Shown here piece after piece: positions 1,272 to 25,682 of a DNA stretch of 28,701 nucleotides; within the stretch, counting starts at the first letter, position 1; every line of letters starts with the position of its first letter. The stretch is from an uncultured Gammaproteobacteria bacterium. Lineage in GTDB: Bacteria > Patescibacteriota > Microgenomatia > Daviesbacterales > UBA10151. The position numbers and the translations under genes are program-made. The stretch is from assembly GCA_964522265.1 (NCBI GenBank), contig CAZFVS010000004.1:1-28701 (forward strand), read 5' to 3'. The notes beneath the pieces are model-generated. The model was not told the DNA's origin. It searched no databases and was given only the letters and a program-made list of their open reading frames with translations.

Positions 1272-2335
1272 TTAATTGCCTGTTATTCCCAATAATTTGT
1301 TCAGCAGCTGGGGCCTGTAAGAATAGTTTTGGGCAATTTCAGCAGTAATATTACCCTCCCTTACTAAGGTTGCTAAAGAATTCTCCATAGTTCTCATGCC
1401 CATCTCCCCAGAGGTTTGTATCATGTTATCTATCAGGTGTGTTTTTCCCTCCCTAATCATTGCACGAAGAGCAGGGGTTGCAAATAAAAGTTCCGAAGCC
1501 AAAACTCTGCCCGGAGAAATAGTTGGTATTAACCGTTGCGATATCACAGCCTCCAAAACTGCAGCCAGCTGTACTCTGATCTGTGGTTGCTGGTCAACAG
1601 GAAAAACATCAACAACGCGGTCTATGGTTTGGGATGCCGAATTAGTGTGAAGGGTAGCAAAGACAAGATGACCTGTTTCGGCAATAGTCATCGCTGCTGA
1701 CATCGTTTCCAGATCACGCATCTCTCCAATTAAAACTACATCCGGATCTTCTCTAAGAGCAGATTTTAAGGCATTCGACCAGGACTTTGTATCCGAATTA
1801 AGCTCTCTTTGGGATATCATTGAACGGCCTTTAGGGTAAACATACTCAATAGGATCCTCAATTGCTACGATATGAGCATTTCTTGAAAGGTTAATCTGGT
1901 TTATGAAAGCAGCAAGGGTCGTGGACTTACCATGACTGTCGGGCCTGTCACTAAGATAAATCCCTGCCTCAACTCCGGGATTCTCGATACTACTTGTGGC
2001 AATCCTGTCTGCTCCAGTGTCCTAATCTGTCTTGGAATTAATCTGAAGGCTGCCGCCAAACCGCCTCGTTGCTTATACAAGTTTACCCTAAATCTGGCCT
2101 TACCCTCAAAATCCAGGCCTAAATCAAGCTCCCAGTTTTGGGTCAGGATATTCTTCTGATGGGGAACCAGTAAAGGAAAGATTAACCCTTCAATCTCGGG
2201 TTCAGAAGTCTTTTCTGTACCCTGTATTGCCACCAGTTCCCCATTTACCCTAAGCGAGGGCATCTCTCCCACTAAAATATGCAGATCAGAAGCATTTCTG
2301 GCAATTGTCAGATCCAATAATTGTTGAATAGTCAT
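1272..2335 (-). pseudogene. pilT: Twitching-motility ATPase PilT interrupted by a 1-nt frameshift in the Walker A motif
   Basis: The N-terminal ORF (1901-2335) ends ...GFILVTGPTVMVSPRP*. From 1931 downward another frame reads GKSTTLAAFINQINLSRNAHIVAIEDPIEYVYPKGRS and runs straight into the 1272-1820 ORF (REDPDVVLIGEMRDLETM...ETGHLVFATLHTNSA). Together these give a full-length PilT. The break maps to about 1932-1940 (acagtcatggtaag). Confidence 0.8.
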
Positions 2336-2339
2336 TACA

Positions 2340-4040
2340 TTAGTCTTGTGCTACCCTGAGCACTTCCTCCAGGGTTGTCACCCCTTCTAAGGTTTTCAAA
2401 AAACCATCTTGTTTAAGTGTCATCATACCTTCTGCAGTCGCCTGTTTTTCTATCTGAGCCGTAGACGCCCTCCCAAGTAATAATCTCATAATTTTATCTG
2501 AAACTACAAGTACCTCAAAAATCCCGATCCTGCCCAGATAACCAAGATTACCACATTCTACACAACCTTTTCCCTTAAAAAGTTGGATTTGTTTTGTCGG
2601 CATATATATACCTAAAATTGAAGTTATATTTTCCAAAACTTCGGGAGGAGGGTTGTAGGCGTAACGGCAATGTGTACAAATCTTCCTTAAAATCCTTTGC
2701 CCAACTACAGCATTTATGGAAGAAGCAAGTAAAAACGGCTCTGCACCCATATCCAAAAGTCTTGGCAAAGCGCCTGATGCAGAATTAGTATGGAGGGTGG
2801 AAAAAACCTGGTGGCCGGTCAGTGCAGCCTGAATCGCTAACTCAGTTGTTTCTGTATCCCGTATCTCCCCCACGAGGATTATATTGGGATCTTGGCGTAA
2901 AAAAGAGCGCAGGGCTGATGCAAAAGTTAAACCGATCTGGGAATTAACCTGAACCTGGTTCGCACCTGCGATATGGTATTCAACTGGGTCTTCAATTGTC
3001 AGAATATTGACTTTTGTGGAAGACAACCTGGATAAAATTGAATATAGGGAGGTTGTTTTACCGGAACCAGTAGGACCACATATTAGTATTATCCCATGGG
3101 TCCTTAACAGTTGTGCATCAAGGTTTTTTAATGCACTTGCCCTAAGCCCCAATTCTTGTAGCGTCGGCGGCTGGGTAGATTTAGGTAAAAGGCGCAAAAC
3201 CACCTTTTCCCCGAAAACAGTTGGAAGGGTTGAAACACGCAGGTCTATATCAACATCATGGTAGTCAAAAGTAAAACGGCCATCTTGAGGAAGCCTGTGC
3301 TCGTCAATCTTAAGGTTTGCCAAAATCTTAACCCTGGAGATCACTGCTTCATGTACTTTTTTCGTTATTTTTATTTTCTCATGCAATATACCGTCAATTC
3401 TAAAACGAACCCGGGTCTGACCTTCTTCCGGCTCTATATGGATGTCTGAAGATTTAGTTTTAGCGGCATATTCTAAAAGCTGCATGACTATATTGGAAAC
3501 AGGAGCCTCCCTGATAACTTCAGCCTTATCCAATTCCGAAGGTTTTTCTTCTACAGCCACCTCTCCAACTTCCTTGAGAGCTGAAACAACCTGGGATGTT
3601 AAGTTTTGTTGGTACTGCTCACTAATCACCTTCATGATATCGTCCGGTAAAGCCAGGAACCGTTCGATCTTTTTATTGGTTTTTTTCTCGATAAATTGAA
3701 TTACCTGCAGATCTAAAGGATCTGCCATCGCCACAAATATGGTGTCCTGGTTCTGCCCAAAAGGTATCAGTTTATACCGCCTTGCTACCTGTTCCGGGAT
3801 AAGACTTAAGGCTTCTGTTGAGACCGCCTTACCTTCCATTTTGATAAAAGGAACATTGAGCTGCAGTGCGTGCACTCGGCCAACCTGTTCAGGTGTAGCA
3901 AAACTGTGGTCTAAAATAATTTTTTCAGTACTTTGACCGGTACTGATACTTTCAAGCTTGATGGCAGAAACCTGGTCGGGCCTGAGTAAGCCTTCAGAAA
4001 GCAGTATATCTTCTACTGAATTTTGTTGATTTGGCTGCAT
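2340..4040 (-). CDS. pilB: Type IV pilus assembly ATPase PilB (GspE family), 566 aa
   Basis: It has an N-terminal GSPII_E_N-like region, Walker A GPTGSGKTT, GEIRDTETTELA, ALTGHQVFSTLHTNSA and a tetracysteine cluster CTHC...CVEC. Confidence 0.88.
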   Translation of the reverse strand: MQPNQQNSVEDILLSEGLLRPDQVSAIKLESISTGQSTEKIILDHSFATPEQVGRVHALQLNVPFIKMEGKAVSTEALSLIPEQVARRYKLIPFGQNQDTIFVAMADPLDLQVIQFIEKKTNKKIERFLALPDDIMKVISEQYQQNLTSQVVSALKEVGEVAVEEKPSELDKAEVIREAPVSNIVMQLLEYAAKTKSSDIHIEPEEGQTRVRFRIDGILHEKIKITKKVHEAVISRVKILANLKIDEHRLPQDGRFTFDYHDVDIDLRVSTLPTVFGEKVVLRLLPKSTQPPTLQELGLRASALKNLDAQLLRTHGIILICGPTGSGKTTSLYSILSRLSSTKVNILTIEDPVEYHIAGANQVQVNSQIGLTFASALRSFLRQDPNIILVGEIRDTETTELAIQAALTGHQVFSTLHTNSASGALPRLLDMGAEPFLLASSINAVVGQRILRKICTHCRYAYNPPPEVLENITSILGIYMPTKQIQLFKGKGCVECGNLGYLGRIGIFEVLVVSDKIMRLLLGRASTAQIEKQATAEGMMTLKQDGFLKTLEGVTTLEEVLRVAQD

Positions 4041-16668: not shown

Positions 16669-17040
16669 TTGGGACTTATTATCTTTATATTGCTCAACTC
16701 GCTGGCTTTGATCATTACTGACTGGTTGCTACCGGGGTTTAATATTGCAGATTACCAAACAGCCATACTTGCTGCAATCGTAATAGGCCTAATCAATACA
16801 TTTATTAAACCATTCCTGCTTTTTATAACAGCCCCATTGAATTTTATGACACTGGGTCTTTTTGCTTTTGTAGTTAATGCAGTGGTATTATCCCTGACTT
16901 CCTGGATCCTGGGAAGTACATTCATCCTGGATAGTTTCTGGTGGGCAATTATGGCAGCAGCAGTACTGTCCGTTGTTTCAACTGCCTTGTCAACCCTGGC
17001 TAGAGATTTGGCAGTCACCGGGAAAAAACGGAAGCATTAG
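16669..17040 (+). CDS. 4-TM membrane protein of the holin superfamily IV / DUF360 type, 123 aa
   Basis: The pattern LLPGF...AAIVIGLINTFIKPFLLFITAPLNFMTLGLFAFVVNAVVL is typical of that family. It has a strong SD. The stop overlaps the convergent xer-like gene by 4 nt. Confidence 0.6.
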   Translation: MGLIIFILLNSLALIITDWLLPGFNIADYQTAILAAIVIGLINTFIKPFLLFITAPLNFMTLGLFAFVVNAVVLSLTSWILGSTFILDSFWWAIMAAAVLSVVSTALSTLARDLAVTGKKRKH

Positions 17041-17906
17041 ATACGATCCTTAAGTTGGGGGATTAACGAGATATTAGAATTACCCAGCATCTTCAAGATA
17101 CTTTTTACATCATTACCGTTATCTAAAAGGTTGGTTGTAAAGTTGTGACGGAGGGTATGGGGGGTAGCTTTGACTAACAAACCTGATAATTTAACATACT
17201 TTTCCACTATTCTCTCAATTGACCGGGGAGTAAGCCTCATCTTCTCTCCCTCATTTTCAGAATCAATGCTGCCTTGAAACCTGATAAATAGCGGGGCAAA
17301 GCTGTCTTGCCGTGACCTGATATACCGATCCAACCACCGTGCTGCCGAATCGGATATAAACACCATACGCTCCTTACCTCCCTTACCCCTCACCCCAAAT
17401 TCCTTTCTTTGCAGATTAATCTGTGAAATGTTTAAAGAAGCGAGCTCTGAGACTCTTAAACCTGTTGAAAACAACACTTCCAAAACAGTCCTGTCCCTTA
17501 ATCCATCTTTTCGTGTTACATTAGGCGCCATAAATAACCTTTCCAAATCACCTGCATCTAAAACTTTCAAGGGAGAAGGCTCTTGTATACCCAATTCTAT
17601 CTTTTCAGCAGAAAGTGTCTTGATATCATTTTCAGCCAGATATTTTACAAAGCTTCTTAAAGCAATTAAAAAGAAGTTTTGAGTTATTTTTTTAAGAGGT
17701 TCCTGGGTTTTTTGATCTGTGCAGCGGGCGAGATAAAATCTGTACCGCCTAATGAGCTCAGGATCAATCGCGGAGGGATTTATCTCCCCGGCAAAATCCT
17801 GAAACCGCCTAAGATAGTGGTCGTAATTTTTGATAGTTTTTGGGGATGCATTCCTTTCCAGCTCCAGATATTCCAGATAATTAGTAATCAGGGCAGAAAG
17901 AATCAT
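17037..17906 (-). CDS. XerC/XerD-like tyrosine recombinase homologue with a degenerate active site (no catalytic Tyr)
   Basis: The N-terminal SAM-like domain (YLEYLELERNASPKTIKNYDHYLRRF) is present, as are TGLRVSEL (Arg I), GKGGKERMV (Lys) and HTLRHNF (His/Arg II). The C-terminus reads MLGNSNISLIPQLKDRI*, where LGH...Y is expected. The ATG at 17906 lies 4 nt after the stop of the cohesin gene; the ORF track uses the TTG at 17909. Confidence 0.8.
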   Translation of the reverse strand: MILSALITNYLEYLELERNASPKTIKNYDHYLRRFQDFAGEINPSAIDPELIRRYRFYLARCTDQKTQEPLKKITQNFFLIALRSFVKYLAENDIKTLSAEKIELGIQEPSPLKVLDAGDLERLFMAPNVTRKDGLRDRTVLEVLFSTGLRVSELASLNISQINLQRKEFGVRGKGGKERMVFISDSAARWLDRYIRSRQDSFAPLFIRFQGSIDSENEGEKMRLTPRSIERIVEKYVKLSGLLVKATPHTLRHNFTTNLLDNGNDVKSILKMLGNSNISLIPQLKDRI

Positions 17907-17909
17907 CAA

Positions 17910-18668
17910 TTAAAGAAAAGCAAGTCCCAGAATTCCCAAGACAGTCAAAATACCTCCAATGATAGTTAGCATCATAGTTGGTCCTATAATACCAGGACAG
18001 GTCCCTCCAGGACATAGTGTTGGAGGAGGGGTTGCTGATTGGGAACTTGATGCCGGGACAAAGGTAGCAAGAGGCGGTGAGGTTGACCCAATTTGCCCTT
18101 GCCCGGACGGACCTGGGCTAGCACTTTGGCCGGCGCAGGTGCCTGTACCAATAGTATAACTGCCGTTTATTACAGAATTTAACACATCAGCTACCGTACC
18201 TCTCTCTACTACATTTGAATCCGTAGTTTTAGTTTTATTATTAGGATCAAATTCCAAAATGATTTGGGTTAAACCTGTTGGGGCGTTTTGAGGAACGGTA
18301 AAGTTCACTGTAGCCAGAGTACCACTGCTAGAAAACGCCTCCTGTACTGAAGCTAAACCAGAGATATTGATTTTTCTTGCCTGGGCATCAATAAAATTCC
18401 CAGGATAATCCGGGTAAATGGATCCGCTGATAATAGTTTGAGGGGTTACCCGAGTTGGGTCATAGTCCAAAATTGCGTCAGTCCCATCGGTTTGAGTACC
18501 CTGAGTATTAAGGTCAATTTTTATAGAAAAACTGCAGCCGCGGTTGAATGTTCCTGACGACGGATTCAAAGACAGGGTGGCTGCAAACGTCAAGCCTGGA
18601 TTAATTAATAAGGAACATGCCGCCATAAATACTAGTAGGCACGACAGCCAGTTTTTGACTCTATTCAT
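17910..18668 (-). CDS. Secreted cohesin-domain protein with a C-terminal transmembrane anchor, 252 aa
   Basis: Signal peptide (LLVFMAACSLLINPGLTFA/ATL). Cohesin-like beta-sandwich pattern (LSLNPSSGTF..GCSFSIKIDLNT.GTQTDGTDAILDYDPTRV ... GTLATVNFTV ... TTDSNVV). Ser/Pro/Gly linker. Terminal helix MMLTIIGGILTVLGILGLAFL. The start overlaps the upstream stop (ATGA). Confidence 0.75.
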   Translation of the reverse strand: MNRVKNWLSCLLVFMAACSLLINPGLTFAATLSLNPSSGTFNRGCSFSIKIDLNTQGTQTDGTDAILDYDPTRVTPQTIISGSIYPDYPGNFIDAQARKINISGLASVQEAFSSSGTLATVNFTVPQNAPTGLTQIILEFDPNNKTKTTDSNVVERGTVADVLNSVINGSYTIGTGTCAGQSASPGPSGQGQIGSTSPPLATFVPASSSQSATPPPTLCPGGTCPGIIGPTMMLTIIGGILTVLGILGLAFL

Positions 18669-19516
18669 TTTTTTATCTCACAGGTATCGCAAGCAGTCGT
18701 TAGATTCGGATCCCAAATGCACACATCATCCTTTTTCTTCCCTCCCTGGCATTCTTGGGTACCCTGACCTCCTGCCCCGTCCCAACAGATCTGTGAATAT
18801 CCTTCACAACGGTCTGAGGTGGCAGTTGTAACCTGACCTAAATCCCGGCTGCCGATTTGTAAATCAAGGTTGTAAACTTTGGTTAAAATATCATCTGTTG
18901 TTTTAGTCTCAATGATATTTGAGTCCGTAGTCAACCCCTTTTCGAAGTTAACAGCAATAGTTGCATTACCGCTTTTTTTGGTTTTAAAAGATAATACCCC
19001 AAAGGTACCAGTGCCATTAAAACCGTTTTTGTCAGGGTAGGCGATACCAGAAATTTCGATGATGCCAACTTTCGCATCATCGCTGACAATGGGGTATTCA
19101 TCGTATACCTCACCCTCGCTGAATGCAGAACTGCCTGCTGTCTCAAGTAAATTAGGGTCGTAATTTAGAACTACATCCATACCATCTGTAGTATGACCTC
19201 CAGTTGAGATTTTGATTGTAACTTTAACCGTGTCTCCTACGGGCAGATTTTTCTTGTCCGCAATTAAAACAATTTTACCCCCAGAAACCGGCTCCAATAC
19301 CTTAATTCTGGAAGATTGGAACGGAGTTTGCAAAATATTCATACCAACAAAAAGCCCAAACAGGATGACGGCCACTAAAATGACAATCCAAACTTTATAG
19401 TGCTTAAGAAATCTCGAAAAACTACTGTTTGGCAACTCTCCTCCGGGCGAAGAGATTTGAGCTGGTGAAAGCGACATATCGCTTTCGTATACTTCCGGTA
19501 ATTTCTCTTTACTCAT
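18665..19516 (-). CDS. N-terminally membrane-anchored cohesin-domain protein with a Cys-rich C-terminal module, 283 aa
   Basis: TM helix VWIVILVAVILFGLFVGMNIL. Cohesin-like pattern (VGDTVKVTIKISTGGHTTDGMDVVLNYDPNLL ... GTFGVLSFKTKKSG ... TTDSNII). Six Cys in the last 50 aa. There are 4-nt overlaps with both neighbouring genes. Confidence 0.75.
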   Translation of the reverse strand: MSKEKLPEVYESDMSLSPAQISSPGGELPNSSFSRFLKHYKVWIVILVAVILFGLFVGMNILQTPFQSSRIKVLEPVSGGKIVLIADKKNLPVGDTVKVTIKISTGGHTTDGMDVVLNYDPNLLETAGSSAFSEGEVYDEYPIVSDDAKVGIIEISGIAYPDKNGFNGTGTFGVLSFKTKKSGNATIAVNFEKGLTTDSNIIETKTTDDILTKVYNLDLQIGSRDLGQVTTATSDRCEGYSQICWDGAGGQGTQECQGGKKKDDVCIWDPNLTTACDTCEIKK

Positions 19517-21750
19517 AGTTCTGACTCATCCCTGCTATTAAAATCATACCTCATACAGGCCCAATCAAATGAATTCACTTTATTATCCCTGTTAAAATCT
19601 CCATTTCTTTGGGAGGATGACCTGCTTTCCCCCCATTCTCTATTTAACTCTGCTTTATCCGCTGAATTAATTACACCATCTCCGCCGTCTAAAGGAAAGA
19701 TATCACCAACAGGCAGTATCATATCAGGAATGATATTTACCCCTTCCTCAGCTGTAAAGGTAAATATCCGCCTTAAAGACATCGGCGCTTTCACAGAGAT
19801 GGTATAAGTTTTACCTGTTTCAAATTTTGTTTTAAGCCCTTGGACCTTCCCTTTTTTATCAACACTGACTATCTCTTTTTTGGGTTTAGATGTAGCGCTG
19901 CCCGATGCTTCGACCGAAGAAGGATCAGGTTCTTGGACAATAACAATTTCAACATCTTCTTGGGCATGATCACTGGGCTTGCGGCAAAACAATTTGGTCC
20001 CAAATTCAAGCTGCTCAAGCTGCCCGAGGGTACAGACTGTCTTGACCTCAACCCCATCAATCCTTTTTATTGCCAGAGGAAACTCTGCAGCCTCGTCTAA
20101 CTGCCCGAGGGAAAACTTTAACAGGGCATTGATGTTATTGTTATCCCATCTGTTAATTCTTACATCACCTGCACCAGAAGAATCATCGATTAAAAACTGG
20201 CCTTGCTCACTTCCAAAATTATTACCGGTCAGTTTGAATCTGATGCCATCCTCACCTAAACTCGTGGAACAGCTTTTGGAGGTAATTTGCGGATCCGGAC
20301 CAACAAATTTTATGGAAGCGTTCTTCCTTACAATAGTCCCTTTTGAACCGATAAATTCTATAAAAATAAACTTTTCAGGTTTTTTGTCGTCTGAAAATTT
20401 AAAGTTTACAACCACCGGCTCGATGGTGTATGGGATCTGCGGAGCATCTGCCAACCCATCAGGCGTTTCGGCGAATTTATAGAATGAAGTTTTCTCACCT
20501 TCAGAAGTAGACGGAGCAGTAGGTGTAGGTGAGGTAACCCCACCACTAGATGAGGGCGTTGGTTTAGGTGTCTTAGTAGGCTTGGGAGTTTTGGTTGGTT
20601 TAGGTGTCTTAGTAGGCTTGGGGGTAGGAGTACCGCTACCCCGGCAATAGTTGATATCCCTCTCATGTTCTGCAACCCATGCTTCGGCGGCTTTTTTAGG
20701 GTCATTATCGTTTCTCGCCAAAAAATCCTTTTGACTCTGTTCGCCCTCCGTACCAAACAGGCTCAACCCATCACAGGCTTTAATGATCGGAGCATCACTC
20801 AAATAGCCGCATACCCCATTGATCTGTCCTTTGTTGCGACATTCATAAAGGTCAGAACAAGCAGCAGACTTTGGTTGTACCTCTATTACATAACCTTCTT
20901 GCGCAAACTCTCCACCTTTTTTGTAACAAAAAGTATCAGGGTTGCCGCTGCATTCTGTATACGCATCACCTACATTTTCGCAAGTGTCTGTGTCTGCTTT
21001 TGCTATAGGAACAAACTCCTGTAACCAACCCGCTTCTTTTAGTTTTGGCGGCTCTTGGTCTGAAATGGTAATTTTGTCAATCATGAGCTCCCTGGTGCAT
21101 TTTGATGTCTGTTTTTCATTACTGTACTCTACGGTCACTGTATGCTTCTGGTCTGATAGTTTAGGATTGTCAAAATACTCCTGCCAGACAGTTGTTTTGA
21201 TAGGTTCGCTCAACACCCTTTTGCCATTCTCTATGCTGACCTTTACAGTAGGCCAGCCGCTGCAATCTTTAGCTTGGGCTCTCACTACAACATATTTCCC
21301 GGTGCCTGTAATCTCACCGGTGGCGGTACCTTTTTTGGTAAACCTCCTGGCCTTGCCACCGCTGGCATTGGTGTCATCAAAAACATCCCCATCACCTGTC
21401 ATAGCCTCTGCTTCCAAAACCTTGCTCACTCCTGGTGTTGGGGTAGGGGTAGCTGTGGGCGTAACTGTAGGGGTAGCTGTAGGAGTTGGTTCAGGTGTTC
21501 CAGGAGGCCCAATAGGGGAGACTGCCTCAACAGTAATGGGGTCAAGACAGGTAGCTACCAGCTTATTATCGCGGGCAACAACGCACTTTCCTTCAATAAA
21601 TTTTACATAACTTTGCTGGGCCCTGGAAGAAATAATCTGCTGCTGCCTGACAAGTGCAATCCCAACAGGCAGACCCAAGGCTATAATAATCAGCAATAAA
21701 ATATTAACAAGGTTTTTCCTTGTTTTCAGAAGGGTTATTAGATCATTCAC
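19513..21750 (-). CDS. Large secreted multidomain protein with a C-terminal dockerin, 745 aa
   Basis: Domains in order:
- aa 14-34: signal anchor.
- TP-rich linker.
- aa ~108-230: CBM6/35-like module (LEAEAM..D..NASGGKA...GKYVVVRA).
- aa ~255-370: Cys-rich module.
- aa 373-397: (PKPTKT)n linker.
- aa ~485-575: IPT/TIG-like module (FKLTGNNFGSEQG...).
- A beta-sandwich module.
- aa 682-745: dockerin with EF-hand-like loops DGGDGVINSAD and DFNRDNKVNSFD.
The start codon is GTG. Confidence 0.75.
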   Translation of the reverse strand: MNDLITLLKTRKNLVNILLLIIIALGLPVGIALVRQQQIISSRAQQSYVKFIEGKCVVARDNKLVATCLDPITVEAVSPIGPPGTPEPTPTATPTVTPTATPTPTPGVSKVLEAEAMTGDGDVFDDTNASGGKARRFTKKGTATGEITGTGKYVVVRAQAKDCSGWPTVKVSIENGKRVLSEPIKTTVWQEYFDNPKLSDQKHTVTVEYSNEKQTSKCTRELMIDKITISDQEPPKLKEAGWLQEFVPIAKADTDTCENVGDAYTECSGNPDTFCYKKGGEFAQEGYVIEVQPKSAACSDLYECRNKGQINGVCGYLSDAPIIKACDGLSLFGTEGEQSQKDFLARNDNDPKKAAEAWVAEHERDINYCRGSGTPTPKPTKTPKPTKTPKPTKTPKPTPSSSGGVTSPTPTAPSTSEGEKTSFYKFAETPDGLADAPQIPYTIEPVVVNFKFSDDKKPEKFIFIEFIGSKGTIVRKNASIKFVGPDPQITSKSCSTSLGEDGIRFKLTGNNFGSEQGQFLIDDSSGAGDVRINRWDNNNINALLKFSLGQLDEAAEFPLAIKRIDGVEVKTVCTLGQLEQLEFGTKLFCRKPSDHAQEDVEIVIVQEPDPSSVEASGSATSKPKKEIVSVDKKGKVQGLKTKFETGKTYTISVKAPMSLRRIFTFTAEEGVNIIPDMILPVGDIFPLDGGDGVINSADKAELNREWGESRSSSQRNGDFNRDNKVNSFDWACMRYDFNSRDESEL
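20571..20632. repeat. In-frame tandem repeat with a 36-nt period, encoding PKPTKTPKPTKT units
   Basis: The 26-mer ggtttaggtgtcttagtaggcttggg occurs at 20571-20596 and again at 20607-20632. Confidence 0.85.
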
Positions 21751-21757
21751 TACTTCT

Positions 21758-21787
21758 ATAGTGGAACAAACCAGACCATTTTGTCAA
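21758..21787 (-). promoter_or_regulatory. Possible operon promoter TTGACA-18-CACTAT, with the -10 box ending 7 nt upstream of the GTG at 21750
   Basis: A perfect -35 box lies on the minus strand (21787-21782). The -10 box is only a minimal match. Confidence 0.45.
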
Positions 21788-21875
21788 CCCCGATCCAACT
21801 GCGCTGAGGCCAAGTACTCATTCAAATATTGTACGACAATGATTTATTGGTAAAATCCGGATTTTTTTTAATATA

Positions 21876-22880
21876 TTACTTGTTACCGGGTACAGGTAGG
21901 GGATGGAAGCGTTTATGGGACTCCTGGGCAAATTTGTCGGAAGCATTGACATAACGGGTGGTAGTATTTAATGATTCGTGGCCCAGAAGCATTTGTATGG
22001 CAACCGGACTGGCTCCTTTCTCTGCCAAATAAGTAGCAAAACCATGGCGTAGGGAGTGAGGACTAATTGGAATATCAATTTTAAGCATTTCACGGTATTT
22101 TTTAATTTTTTCCTGTATATATCTGGTGGAAATTCTTCTTTGGGATTTATTAATAGTTTTTCCTTTAGTCGGAACAAATAATGCTTGCTGAGTATCATCT
22201 CTAAAACCAAGGTATTGGTTTAGAAATGCTTTTGCTCTTTCAGTAATATATGCAAACCGTTGTTTGCGTCCTTTTCCGGTTATTAAAATCCGTCCAGAAC
22301 GATTTAAATCGTGTATATTTAGGGATACAAGTTCAGATATACGCATTCCTGTTGCAAATAATACTTCAAGAATAGCCCTATTCCGTGATGCAATTTCTGG
22401 ATCGGATTCCAATACAGAAGGAGATTCTATCAAGGAGATTAGTTCGCTCAGTTCAGCAACATTTGGGTGCAACCGGTCTCTTTTAACCATCCTGAATTGG
22501 TCGGGTATTATTTCTAACCTAAAATCCTGATCAATTAAAAAGCGTAAATATGTCCTTACCGCCGATAAACATCTATTAATACTGGCGGGGGATAGATGTG
22601 ATTCGATTTTGAGCTTATTTGTAGCAGTTTTCCGGTCATCTGAAGCTAAATATGCCTTAAATTCGAAAACATTTCTTTTATCCATCTGGTTTAAAGTTAT
22701 CTCTTTTATTTTTAGGAAATCCTCGAATATAACCAGATCTTTTTGATAATTGTAAACAGTTTTGGGTGAGTAGTTATTAGTCTTAAGATATAAAAAAAAA
22801 TCTTCCACTTGAACCAGCAAGCTATGATTTATTATTCGCATAAGGATGATTATACGCATAATAACTAATCTTGAGTTCAA
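21876..22880 (-). CDS. Tyrosine recombinase of the XerC/XerD/integrase family with a complete active site
   Basis: Motifs present: ATGMRISEL, GKGRKQRFA, HSLRHGFATYL and LLGHESLNTTTRYV (catalytic Tyr). The start is uncertain. The longest ORF uses the TTG at 22880. The ATG at 22841 is preceded by TATAAT (22854-22849) 7 nt upstream. Confidence 0.85.
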   Translation of the reverse strand: MNSRLVIMRIIILMRIINHSLLVQVEDFFLYLKTNNYSPKTVYNYQKDLVIFEDFLKIKEITLNQMDKRNVFEFKAYLASDDRKTATNKLKIESHLSPASINRCLSAVRTYLRFLIDQDFRLEIIPDQFRMVKRDRLHPNVAELSELISLIESPSVLESDPEIASRNRAILEVLFATGMRISELVSLNIHDLNRSGRILITGKGRKQRFAYITERAKAFLNQYLGFRDDTQQALFVPTKGKTINKSQRRISTRYIQEKIKKYREMLKIDIPISPHSLRHGFATYLAEKGASPVAIQMLLGHESLNTTTRYVNASDKFAQESHKRFHPLPVPGNK

Positions 22881-22918
22881 TTGTCAAGTTTAAGGTTACT
22901 TCTCGACTCGTCTCGGCG

Positions 22919-22942
22919 AGGCGGGCGTGGCTTCGCCCGCCT
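22919..22942. other. Strong GC hairpin AGGCGGGCG-tggctt-CGCCCGCCT inside the 646-bp non-coding gap
   Basis: A 9-bp, all-Watson-Crick, GC-rich stem. No flanking T-run on either strand, so it is not a classical terminator. Confidence 0.6.
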
Positions 22943-23526
22943 TTGTGGCGTAGCCTTTTCCGGTCGTCTCGCAATTTAGCCTTGAGCCCTAAAATGACCC
23001 TTAAAACGGTTTATCGGCAGGGGAGATGTAGGATTGATCATTCTGAGTTTAGGCTGTTACAACGCGCTAAATAAAATTTAAGCTTTATCATCAAAGTACT
23101 AAAAAATTTTAAAAAAATTGCAGGATAAATTGGCAGAAATAGGTTCAATAAATCAGACTGAAAAATCTGCATTTTTGGTCCATGCTATCCCTTCATTATC
23201 TAAATGGGTGTCCCCTGAGAAATTAGGTTTATAACGTCGGACAATATCATGGTACGATATGCGCTTGGGTAGAAGTATACCCGAACAGAAAGGGTGGTGG
23301 AGAAAACAGACGATCAACTTAAATTTCGTTATATTCCGTGCTCCTTTATCACCTTCTTTTGAAATATCTTAAACTTATTCCCTACTGCATCGCTAAGTCC
23401 ATTTTTTTCACGCGTGTAAATTAATCTTTATAACACCCCTATCATATTTTTATCTTTTTGGGAATAGCTTATAGTTATCCACAATTCTCTAAGTTTGACT
23501 ATATCATTCTGTATCAATAATCTTTA

Positions 23527-24843: not shown

Positions 24844-24851
24844 TGTTTAAT

Positions 24852-24880
24852 AATGTAGCGCAAATAAGTTTGCATAGCAA
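24852..24880 (-). promoter_or_regulatory. Possible ruvC promoter TTGCTA-17-TACATT, with the -10 box ending 8 nt upstream of the ATG at 24843
   Basis: Hexamers read on the minus strand at 24880-24875 and 24857-24852. Confidence 0.45.
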
Positions 24881-24888
24881 GTTAAATT

Positions 24889-24944
24889 TTTATCACACTT
24901 TATCACACCCCCCGGGTGTGAGTTTTTAGTAGTGTTAGTAGTGT
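24889..24944. repeat. Composite element upstream of ruvC: two tandem repeats flanking a hairpin
   Basis: Components, all read directly:
- Tandem tttatcacac x2 at 24889-24908.
- An 8-bp hairpin tcacaccc-ccc-gggtgtga at 24903-24921, followed by gttttt.
- Tandem tagtagtgt x2 at 24927-24944. Confidence 0.7.
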
Positions 24945-24953
24945 TTGGATATG

Positions 24954-24982
24954 AAAAGGGCGCCGGGTTTAATCCCGGCGCC
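24954..24982 (-). terminator. Intrinsic terminator of the zinc-ribbon gene: GGCGCCGGG-attaaa-CCCGGCGCC followed by CTTTT
   Basis: A 9-bp GC stem. The stop codon lies in the loop. A short T-run follows on the minus strand. Confidence 0.55.
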
Positions 24983-25232
24983 TGGCGGCCAAAGCCGCAT
25001 TAATCAACTTGTACTGCATCCCGGAAGGAATTCTCTCTGTCACCACATTTTCTGTGTGACAGTCATCACACAGAAACGATACCTCCGGTTCCCAAGTTTC
25101 GCCGCCATAAAAAACGGCATGGTTGAAAACTCTTAGATCTGACTCACCAACCTCCCACACCGTCTTGCACTCGCTGCAAGTGAACTTCTTAGCCCATCTG
25201 TCTCCACCTGAAATCCTTCGAACAGCTTTCAC
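24969..25232 (-). CDS. Small zinc-ribbon protein, 87 aa
   Basis: Two CxxC pairs (CSEC, CDDC). GTG start preceded by AGGAGG (25244-25239) at 6 nt. It has its own terminator. GC is visibly higher than in the neighbouring genes. Confidence 0.6.
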   Translation of the reverse strand: MKAVRRISGGDRWAKKFTCSECKTVWEVGESDLRVFNHAVFYGGETWEPEVSFLCDDCHTENVVTERIPSGMQYKLINAALAARRRD

Positions 25233-25353
25233 TGCCTACCTCCTGGTAGTAAAATTTCAAAGATCACTACAAAATGATTAACTGGGGCGCAAAAAGATTG
25301 CCTCAAGCTCTCATTTTGTAACAGAACAAATTTAGCACAAAATTACCCCATAG

Positions 25354-25578
25354 TCAATCATTAAGAAGTCCTACTGCTTCACTGAGCCTTGACTGGAAGT
25401 TTTGGATATCTTCAGGAAAAAGTATAAAGGTATTCCTTTTTTTCTCATCCCCTTCGCCAACAAACCTTGATTCAGTAACCTTAAGATACTTTTTGTTATT
25501 GGATGCAAGGTTTACATCAAAGAAAAAAGTTCGCCTTCCTGCTCTCAAAACTGAGGATTTTAATGCTTTCTTCTCCAT
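25354..25578 (-). CDS. PUR-alpha-like (DUF3276-type) single-stranded nucleic-acid-binding protein, 74 aa
   Basis: The pattern RAGRRTFFFDVNLASNNKKYLKVTESR...RNTFILFPEDIQNF matches a PUR repeat. It has the SD GGGAGGTGA and a promoter of its own. Confidence 0.65.
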   Translation of the reverse strand: MEKKALKSSVLRAGRRTFFFDVNLASNNKKYLKVTESRFVGEGDEKKRNTFILFPEDIQNFQSRLSEAVGLLND

Positions 25579-25648
25579 ACCTTTTACTCACCTCCCTTCC
25601 AAACCACTCTCTTTGACTAACCTATTAAGAGATTAAAGTTATAAATGT

Positions 25649-25677
25649 TTTATACCCGAAGAAAACCCATATGTCAA
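25649..25677 (-). promoter_or_regulatory. Near-consensus promoter TTGACA-17-TATAAA, about 70 nt upstream of the PUR-like gene
   Basis: Minus strand: TTGACA at 25677-25672 and TATAAA at 25654-25649. Confidence 0.6.
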
Positions 25678-25682
25678 TATAG

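Follow-up and report, generated by a model that had tools for sequence, protein, structure and literature searches.

We show that three adjacent minus-strand genes, here called A, B and C, in a 28,701-nt stretch of contig CAZFVS010000004.1 (assembly GCA_964522265.1; the window, in what follows) encode one dockerin protein and two cohesin proteins, and that this arrangement recurs in related genomes. In our view, these genes probably constitute a non-cellulosomal cohesin-dockerin system for surface display or adhesion in a Candidatus Daviesbacteria-like groundwater bacterium of very small genome, a member of the Microgenomates within the Candidate Phyla Radiation (CPR). In this sense, parts familiar from the cellulosome look as though they had been reused for surface attachment, not for cellulose digestion. 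A prediction made earlier from the letters of the window had already proposed such a display or adhesion complex, and that reading is supported by the synteny of the genes, the conservation of the dockerin, the binding-type modules at the head of protein A and its adhesin-like stalk, from which we infer a role in adhesion.

The conservation of the locus was followed through gene C. This gene was chosen as anchor because full-length A as query returned 7 matches and was swamped by its Pro/Thr linkers, and the C-terminal part of A returned 8. The C family comprises 779 matches, typically 50-60% identical, and every named one belongs to Candidatus Daviesbacteria or Microgenomates. Among 59 loci collected in this way from GTDB species genomes, 50 had enough flanking DNA to be evaluated, and in 48 of these 50 Daviesbacteria or Microgenomates loci custom hidden Markov models found A, B, C and a tyrosine recombinase gene, X, in the same order and on the same strand; independent gene calls agree with this synteny. 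Recurrence at this level is far above chance, and it answers the question, raised by the original prediction, of whether the triad is syntenic in related genomes. The usual neighbours of the block are RuvC-DUF5656 on one side and gyrA on the other. X stands 3' of C in every locus that has downstream sequence, so the conserved unit consists of four genes, not three: the proposed self-contained three-gene module holds for the triad itself and is incomplete with regard to the recombinase gene that always follows C. Such lineage-wide conservation suggests that the system is probably important to these bacteria.

Genes A, B and C are translationally coupled. Both the open reading frames and the junctions, which we read directly, confirm the predicted 4-nt overlaps between the three minus-strand genes, and each overlap is an ATGA (GAACTATGAGTAAA and AAAAAATGAATAGA; A/B junction, CTATGAGT; B/C junction, AAATGAAT). 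Direct reading also places the TAA stop codon of C immediately before TTGATG, the TTG/ATG start of X, with zero gap between the two genes.

Cohesins adopt a nine-stranded β-sandwich of the jelly-roll type. B and C were each predicted to carry one cohesin-like module, and Pfam places Cohesin (PF00963) at aa 85-208 of B (32.2 bits) and at aa 39-148 of C (34.3 bits), against a gathering cut-off of 24.1; of 4 B orthologues scanned, 3 likewise score above it. The two modules are 32% identical to each other (E = 1e-15). For C, an AlphaFold2 (AF2) model built with 25 homologues shows a β-sandwich over aa 30-175, with a predicted local distance difference test score (pLDDT) mostly above 85. When this model is compared with the PDB by Foldseek, every one of the top 50 matches is a cohesin (target-normalised TM-score about 0.7, E down to 1e-9), among them the non-cellulosomal cohesin 2xdh from Archaeoglobus fulgidus and the cohesin-like 2jh2 from Clostridium perfringens. 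The predicted structure confirms that C has a cohesin fold and not another one. In the C family, the motifs TDGxDAI, YPDYPG and KTTDSNVV are invariant.

By their sequence features, the two cohesin proteins appear to be anchored in opposite topologies, as had been proposed, with an N-terminal transmembrane segment and a Cys-rich tail in B, and a signal peptide and a terminal helix in C. The 41 residues of B that precede the transmembrane segment, or 43 where the segment is taken as aa 44-62, are assigned to the cytoplasm. In C, the cleavage site directly precedes the mature N-terminus ATLSLSP, which is conserved throughout the family; aa 181-220 are disordered (pLDDT <50), and the terminal helix spans approximately aa 229-252. 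This helix (…LTxLGILGLALL) is near-invariant in the family and lacks a basic tail, and the window copy ends in …GLAFL. Among 105 orthologues with complete C-termini, the helix is preceded by LPxxG in 71 and by LxPGG, as in the window, in 8. We also considered C as a sortase substrate, whose signal combines LPXTG, a hydrophobic stretch and a positively charged tail. C does not conform to this: the window protein has LCPGG and no basic tail, and the LPxxG orthologues likewise lack one. One C orthologue has a sub-threshold match to a sortase-substrate family (18.8 bits versus 47), and a sorting signal at the C-terminus of C is at most possible. The B family comprises 475 representative clusters at E <= 1e-10; its members are either short or long, and the long ones carry the Cys-rich tail. 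A motif of this tail, which belongs to no Pfam family, is repeated 15 times in P0226, a 3,721-aa protein of the representative library, and the B tail therefore appears to be a reusable extracellular repeat module.

Type-I dockerins consist of two repeats, each with an EF-hand-like Ca loop (ligands at positions 1, 3, 5, 9 and 12) followed by a helix. In A, Dockerin_1 (PF00404) is called at aa 690-733 with 26.3 bits against a gathering cut-off of 22.9, so that the cohesin and dockerin matches sought in Pfam are all significant and above the curated cut-offs; across the family, 37 of 55 A proteins match Dockerin_1 at E <= 1e-3. The best PDB sequence matches of the last 73 residues of A are type-I dockerins, with both repeats aligned, namely CelS (1daq, E = 5e-4) and CelA (2vn6). 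Repeat 2 has Ca ligands at all five positions (D718, N720, D722, N726 and D729), which are conserved in 50-55 of the 55 A proteins, and repeat 1 keeps only positions 5, 9 and 12 (D691, N695 and D698) among the same proteins. With one repeat complete and the other partial, the dockerin is half canonical: the two-loop dockerin that the original prediction saw at the end of A is there by its Pfam score, but the full ligand set is confined to repeat 2. The AF2 model places helices at aa 696-706 and 727-734, as expected for a dockerin. No part of A is better conserved than the dockerin: when the window is compared with its nearest relative, identity is 93% for the dockerin, 75% for the cohesin of C, 63% for that of B and 61% for the stalk of A.

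At its other end, A has the single N-terminal hydrophobic segment that had been predicted as a signal anchor. The segment and the subsequent QQQIIxSRA motif are kept in orthologues, and AF2 models a helix at aa 2-46. From its sequence, the segment may be a signal anchor or a long signal peptide cut after the conserved S-R-A44; its length of 21 residues favours the anchor. A small β-domain comes next, followed by a Pro/Thr linker at aa 89-108, and the first 91 residues are 73% identical to protein P0001. Beyond the linker lies the head. Pfam assigns aa 154-234 to CBM60 (PF16841) with 30.3 bits, only just over the gathering cut-off of 28.2, and AF2 models the region as β-strands forming a β-sandwich with a pLDDT of 60-70. 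The CBM6/35-like module of the original prediction was not borne out, as a Pfam scan of A at E <= 1 gave no match to CBM6 or CBM35. CBM60 is a Ca-dependent, xylan-binding family, and on this assignment the head of A would probably bind glycans in a Ca-dependent manner. The Cys-rich module that had been noted in A follows the CBM60-like domain; BLASTP finds it, over aa 263-317, in P0001 and not in P0002 or P0003. The stalk contains three β-sandwiches between aa 420 and 675 in the AF2 model, two at aa 420-580 with a pLDDT of about 90 and a third at aa 597-675 with about 75, in keeping with the further β-sandwich module that had been proposed. The TIG-like module fared less uniformly: Pfam finds no TIG in this protein and finds it in 15 of 55 orthologues. 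Foldseek matches of the stalk include cadherin ectodomains, repeats and extenders of RTX adhesins, SGBP-B and GhpA, and in its predicted structure the C-terminal core of A resembles an adhesin stalk. The full-length AF2 model of A is only partially confident, with the Cys-rich region and the dockerin poorly modelled.

Pairwise and multiple alignments show that two parts of A are constant in the family, the N-terminal anchor (aa 1-90) and the last 330 residues, comprising stalk and dockerin, and that the middle region is replaced wholesale among close relatives. In 55 A proteins, this variable region holds CBM60, discoidin/NedA-like, SdrD-B, fn3, several Ig types, C-type-lectin-like, carboxypeptidase-regulatory-like and extra cohesin-like modules, as well as one pectate-lyase-like β-helix; PA14 and cupredoxin heads occur in further A relatives. 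The proposed glycan-binding role fits the CBM60-like head of this genome and does not extend to the family as a whole. None of the 55 A proteins contains a glycoside hydrolase, and neither do A or the other window open reading frames of at least 110 aa, which confirms the absence of such enzymes stated in the original prediction; more broadly, catalytic carbohydrate-active enzyme families are missing from all of these, save for the single pectate-lyase-like β-helix. In 3 of the 55 A proteins (for example L006:5545-7320 and L046:267-3194), a cohesin-like module in the variable head accompanies the C-terminal dockerin, a combination that would in principle allow chains of A proteins.

The locus also occurs in expanded forms. 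Tandem arrays of the type A-B-A-B(-C-X) are found in loci L043 and L067, and of the type A-A-B(-C-X) in L047, L055, L061 and L045; the dockerins of tandem A copies are 31-58% identical to each other. In the sister genome GCA_016186955.1 (L002:1836-8565), a paralogous A with a β-helix head (P0002) has its own B-like partner and no C. This partner is 38% identical to B, Cys-rich tail included. The pair is flanked by T4SS_pilin genes and a TrbL_3 gene and lies beside HicAB and a DDE transposase.

We propose a model in which A would be exported through its conserved N-terminal hydrophobic segment and would consist, in order, of a variable head (here the CBM60-like and Cys-rich modules), a constant rod of three Ig-like domains, and a C-terminal type-I-like dockerin. 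This dockerin would plug into a cohesin held at the envelope, that of B and/or that of C, probably in a Ca-dependent manner. The cohesin of B would be held about 15 residues above the membrane by its N-terminal anchor, and that of C would sit on a flexible linker of about 50 residues before the C-terminal helix, with its possible sorting signal. Once assembled, the complex would present the binding module at the surface, where it would serve to attach the cell to host cells, glycans or particles. A and B would diversify jointly as a cassette, with C and the adjacent recombinase staying constant.

Mirror-tree comparisons of 48 triads bear on the last part of this model. Dockerin distances correlate with those of B at r = 0.53, of C at r = 0.29 and of the recombinase at r = -0.15, and the control, the non-dockerin core of A, correlates with B at r = 0.77. 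Because the control exceeds the dockerin, the correlation points to linkage and a shared cassette history, not to co-evolution specific to the dockerin and B, and we discarded the mirror-tree as proof of dockerin-B specificity. What can safely be concluded is that A and B have evolved as one unit, with a history separate from that of C and the recombinase: neither the distances of the A core nor those of the B cohesin track the recombinase (r ~0). A comparison of dockerin and B divergence among paralogues gave no consistent rule.

Several observations weigh against a display and adhesion system. Repeat 1 of the dockerin lacks acidic residues at loop positions 1 (L/V/A) and 3 (G/N), the dockerin is modelled with a pLDDT below 50, and its correlation with B is weaker than that of the rest of A. 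Moreover, A, B and C all seem to be membrane-tethered, and an uncleaved A would have the odd geometry of a protein held at either end. The triad is also not obligate, since L013 and L057 have C and X without A and B and the L002 pair occurs without C. Finally, the organism is uncultured and has no known host.

Some of these points would fit a different account, in which A, B and C are independent envelope proteins that share extracellular folds, the dockerin being an EF-hand tail that binds Ca in a structural role and the cohesins being β-sandwiches of a generic kind, without contact between them and brought together by a compact, operon-rich genome. The modest Pfam scores of 26-34 bits would agree with this, as would the non-canonical first repeat, the low-confidence dockerin model and the presence of an unrelated recombinase gene that is just as tightly linked; and, in the passages of PMC10066038 that cite Peer et al. 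2009, partnerless non-cellulosomal cohesin- and dockerin-like modules are described as widespread. We regard this account as unlikely, though not negligible. In 48 of 50 loci, one dockerin and two cohesins recur in a fixed order, no other segment of A, which otherwise diverges fast, is as conserved as the dockerin, duplicated A genes are usually accompanied by a B of their own, and the products of an adjacent cohesin/dockerin gene pair have been found to bind each other elsewhere (PMC13487519).

It is quite improbable, in our judgement, that the locus encodes a genuine minimal cellulosome, that is, a complex for the degradation of polysaccharides. Its two domain families are those of cellulosomes, A carries a module of a xylan-binding family and one A paralogue has a pectate-lyase-like β-helix. 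Bell et al. interpreted similar proteins of a Microgenomates metagenome-assembled genome (MAG) from Olkiluoto as a cellulosome (10.1101/2021.08.21.457207), and a two-protein minimal cellulosome-like system is known from C. lentocellum (PMC13487519). However, apart from that single β-helix, no glycoside hydrolase, esterase or lyase family was found in A, the window open reading frames of at least 110 aa or the 55 orthologues; each cohesin protein has one cohesin, with no multi-cohesin scaffoldin; and the heads are domains of the adhesion type. Without enzymes and without such a scaffoldin, the system is not a cellulosome in the defining sense of the term.

The recombinase genes invite another explanation, in which the locus is a variable surface-antigen locus whose flanking recombinases swap or rearrange A-B cassettes at or near a dif-like site, changing binding specificity or evading phage, with the cohesin-dockerin pair as the constant docking interface. 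The block has a recombinase gene at either end in the window, as it does in the 16 of 48 complete loci with an upstream gene of the type here called X2; the downstream gene is always present. Additionally, heads are swapped among close relatives with conserved flanks, tandem A-B-A-B and A-A-B arrays exist, the history of A and B is decoupled from that of the recombinase and C, and 22 related loci have a conserved recombinase-type core site 5' of A. This site, CGTCG[Y/G]ACAA-TGTATC-TTATRCGACG, is strongly conserved, single-copy and oriented with the operon (for example L001:9411-9436, L007:3531-3556 and L063:5241-5266). It lies between DUF5656 and A, or directly 5' of C in L013 and L057, and consists of 10-nt inverted arms around a 6-nt spacer. 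We take this 10-6-10 layout to be that of a tyrosine-recombinase core site resembling dif. Among the loci seen, the dif-like site and X2 are mutually exclusive. About 300 nt of conserved blocks follow 3' of the site, among them the invariant sequence CCGTTTT and a hairpin with covariation (TTTAGGGCT…AGCCCTAA); this element has no Rfam match at the gathering cut-off or at E <= 1, contains no tRNA or tmRNA, and has a weak consensus fold. In relatives, this element lies in gene-free gaps of about 900 bp 5' of A; on comparison, these gaps did not prove to be remnants of the upstream recombinase gene.

Xer-type tyrosine recombinases are characterised by the catalytic residues R-H-R-(H/W)-Y, including the nucleophilic Tyr. 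X has a Phage_integrase domain (E = 3.3e-32), and with a mean identity of 74% among its orthologues it looks like a highly conserved core gene, a housekeeping Xer, a character that speaks against a role in antigenic switching. The window copy lacks the segment TTQIYTHVTN, which holds the catalytic Tyr, and has LGN in place of LGH; all orthologues keep both features, and the window copy is about 65-70% identical to them, versus 74% among themselves. By its sequence, X is probably inactive in this genome, or else the copy is an assembly artefact. X2 likewise has a Phage_integrase domain (E = 1.5e-33), with an intact catalytic region (…LLGHESLNTTTRY…), and forms a separate orthologous group, with 57% mean identity within the group and about 34% to the X group. 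A GC-rich hairpin (AAGGCGGGCG-AAGCCA-CGCCCGCCTC) is located at approximately 22918-22943, just 5' of the start of X2. Several findings speak against such a switching locus. Both the dif-like site, single-copy where it occurs, and the adjoining conserved element are absent from the window, and a search for inversion- or att-type repeats across 16.5-23.6 kb gave only short AT-rich matches, none of them a convincing inverted or direct repeat on either side of the genes. Scans of viral contigs with profiles of A and C found no relatives. For this window, Xer/dif-linked cassette exchange is conceivable but unsupported, and a switching locus of this kind is, on balance, a doubtful explanation with a low probability.

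The surroundings of X are also compatible with a replication terminus beside the Xer-like genes, a weakly supported possibility. The cumulative GC skew of the window peaks at about 16.4-17.1 kb, where genes converge (plus-strand genes end at 17040 and minus-strand genes begin at 17037). In 32 related loci, GC skew is higher on the left than on the right in 25 and changes sign in 14, a pattern confounded by gene orientation. A more far-reaching scenario would place the operon at an Xer/dif recombination hot spot, possibly the terminus, with A-B cassettes exchanged between strains, and would see in the paralogue embedded among type IV secretion system (T4SS) genes the "missing" adhesin of the Patescibacteria T4SS; we give this scenario little credence. 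If it were true, it would amount to recombinase-linked switching of host or substrate specificity in an episymbiont lineage, in which a constant platform, C and the dockerin interface, is re-armed with new heads.

The L002 pair could be a candidate T4SS adhesin, and a survey of Patescibacteria found no adhesin in their T4SS loci (PMC12102498). That A and B in general are the accessory adhesin of a T4SS or pilus, and with it the one for mating or host contact that is missing from the monoderm-type T4SS of Patescibacteria, with the window copy as a chromosomal relative, is very unlikely: Gram-positive-type T4SSs do need surface adhesins, of which none was detected in those loci (PMC12102498), the sister-genome pair lies between T4SS_pilin genes and TrbL_3, and the type IV pilus genes PilB and PilC are 15 kb away in the window, but this pair is the single T4SS-embedded example seen, and the window block and the 48 orthologous loci lie between RuvC-DUF5656 and gyrA, not in T4SS clusters.

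The surface-attachment system that we favour shares features with several known ones. In the anchoring of the cellulosome, as in the type-I/II modules of Clostridium thermocellum, the same two Pfam families occur and, on our model, the same logic would apply, a C-terminal dockerin plugging cargo into a cell-bound cohesin, and the top PDB matches of C are cellulosomal cohesins. Here, in contrast, there are no enzymes and no multi-cohesin scaffoldin, membrane helices take the place of surface-layer homology domains, the cargo consists of a binding module carried by an Ig-like stalk, the first dockerin repeat is half-degenerate, and the organism is a CPR bacterium with an ultra-small genome. Non-cellulosomal cohesin- and dockerin-like modules have reportedly been surveyed by Peer et al. 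in 2009. Modules such as 2xdh and 2jh2 likewise come from non-cellulolytic organisms with few copies per genome, whereas the present genes form a lineage-wide operon with one dockerin and two cohesins in opposite anchoring topologies. Non-cellulosomal dockerins have also been proposed to act as adhesins (PMC10066038).

In Cellulosilyticum lentocellum, the adjacent genes of ClcC and ClcD encode a single-cohesin and a single-dockerin protein that were shown to form a heterodimer and to enhance cellulase activity (PMC13487519). By analogy, this pair would be a direct precedent for a functional, reduced, gene-adjacent cohesin-dockerin system, from which ours differs in having no enzyme, a second cohesin and membrane anchors on all components. 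Within the Patescibacteria, cohesin and dockerin proteins are expressed in Ca. Shapirobacterales, a Microgenomates MAG (10.1101/2021.08.21.457207), and the dockerin-domain envelope protein SEML1_0315 of Southlakia epibionticum is essential for epibiotic growth, with host-glycan adhesion suggested by its authors as well (PMC10633639). Compared by their descriptions, these are likewise envelope proteins with the domains found here; those reports give domain annotation only and describe no operon, partner cohesins, variable heads or conservation analysis. A further likeness is to adhesins with Ig-type stalks, such as RTX adhesins, Bacteroides SGBP-B and the GhpA grappling hook, whose tandem β-sandwich rods are matched by aa 418-675 of A and in which, as in A, a constant stalk carries a variable binding module at its distal end. 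The likeness is one of fold only, at 9-14% identity, and where A has a dockerin, those adhesins rely for anchoring on lipidation, type I secretion system retention modules or other means.

Cohesin-dockerin pairs outside cellulosomes, and their occurrence in the CPR as domain annotation, were known before. Full-text literature searches found no report of a conserved A-B-C(-recombinase) operon, of a stalk-dockerin protein with exchangeable heads, of oppositely anchored cohesins or of the cassette behaviour of A and B. The role of non-cellulosomal cohesin-dockerin pairs is largely unsettled, as is the attachment of CPR bacteria other than Saccharibacteria to hosts or substrates. The single dockerin, the two cohesins and the exchangeable head of the present system are separable parts that can be tested in vitro without culture. 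If the proposed function is correct, the head modules would be a readable catalogue of the binding targets of Daviesbacteria, and the dockerin/cohesin pair a new orthogonal docking pair for protein engineering.

The coordinates of the genes and modules are collected in Table 1.

Table 1. Genes, modules and flanking features of the cohesin-dockerin block in the window
Feature	Position	Strand	Description
Gene A	19513..21750	-	745 aa, GTG start; modular surface protein with C-terminal dockerin
A aa 14-34	21649..21711	-	Hydrophobic segment, 21 aa after K/R-rich residues (hydropathy)
A aa 48-88	21487..21609	-	Small conserved β-domain with two Cys; pLDDT ~90
A aa 135-234	21049..21348	-	CBM60-like β-sandwich, the variable head here (Pfam, AF2)
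A aa 250-335	20746..21003	-	Cys-rich module; pLDDT <50
A aa 418-675	19726..20499	-	Stalk of three Ig-like/TIG-like β-sandwiches; kept in all orthologues
A aa 680-738	19537..19713	-	Dockerin, LPVGDIFP…GDGVINSAD…GDFNRDNKVNSFDWACMRYDF (Pfam, PDB sequence matches)
Gene B	18665..19516	-	283 aa; type-II membrane-anchored cohesin protein with Cys-rich tail
B aa 42-62	19331..19393	-	Transmembrane anchor; hydropathy 2.89 over 19 aa, basic residues ahead
B aa 78-222	18851..19285	-	Cohesin module, ~15 residues from the membrane anchor
B aa 236-281	18674..18811	-	Cys-rich tail, 6 Cys; in long B forms only
Gene C	17910..18668	-	252 aa; secreted cohesin protein with C-terminal membrane helix
C aa 1-29	18582..18668	-	Cleavable signal peptide (…LTFA|ATLSLNP), AxA-type site
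C aa 30-175	18144..18581	-	Cohesin module; mean pairwise distance 0.36 across 48 genomes
C aa 176-252	17913..18143	-	Ser/Pro/Gly linker, LCPGGTCPG motif and terminal hydrophobic helix …LTVLGILGLAFL
Tyrosine recombinase X	17037..17909	-	290 aa; downstream, conserved fourth gene of the block
Tyrosine recombinase X2	21876..22880	-	334 aa; upstream
Intergenic region 5' of A	21751..21875	-	125 bp; sole gap in the X2-A-B-C-X run

The intergenic region 5' of A presumably holds the promoter and leader of the operon; a promoter and terminator scan gave counts at the level of shuffled sequence, none above chance. The rest of the window is ordinary chromosome, with PilB/PilC, gyrB, gyrA, four Mur ligases, Ddl, RuvC, purB/C/E and DUF5656, and contains no tRNA genes or Rfam matches. 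Next to the full-length PilB-like gene at 2340..4040 are two minus-strand open reading frames, one of 182 aa at 1272..1820 whose match to the T2SSE/PilT ATPase profile covers the central part alone (positions 199-282 of 370), and one of 144 aa at 1901..2335 with no Pfam match; together they look like a split or decayed pilus ATPase gene. The window is otherwise tightly packed, save for two stretches with no open reading frame of at least 110 aa, at 22881..23526 (~650 bp) and 24844..25682 (~840 bp). In place of the second of these, the related locus L001 has a DUF3276 gene and a 289-aa gene.

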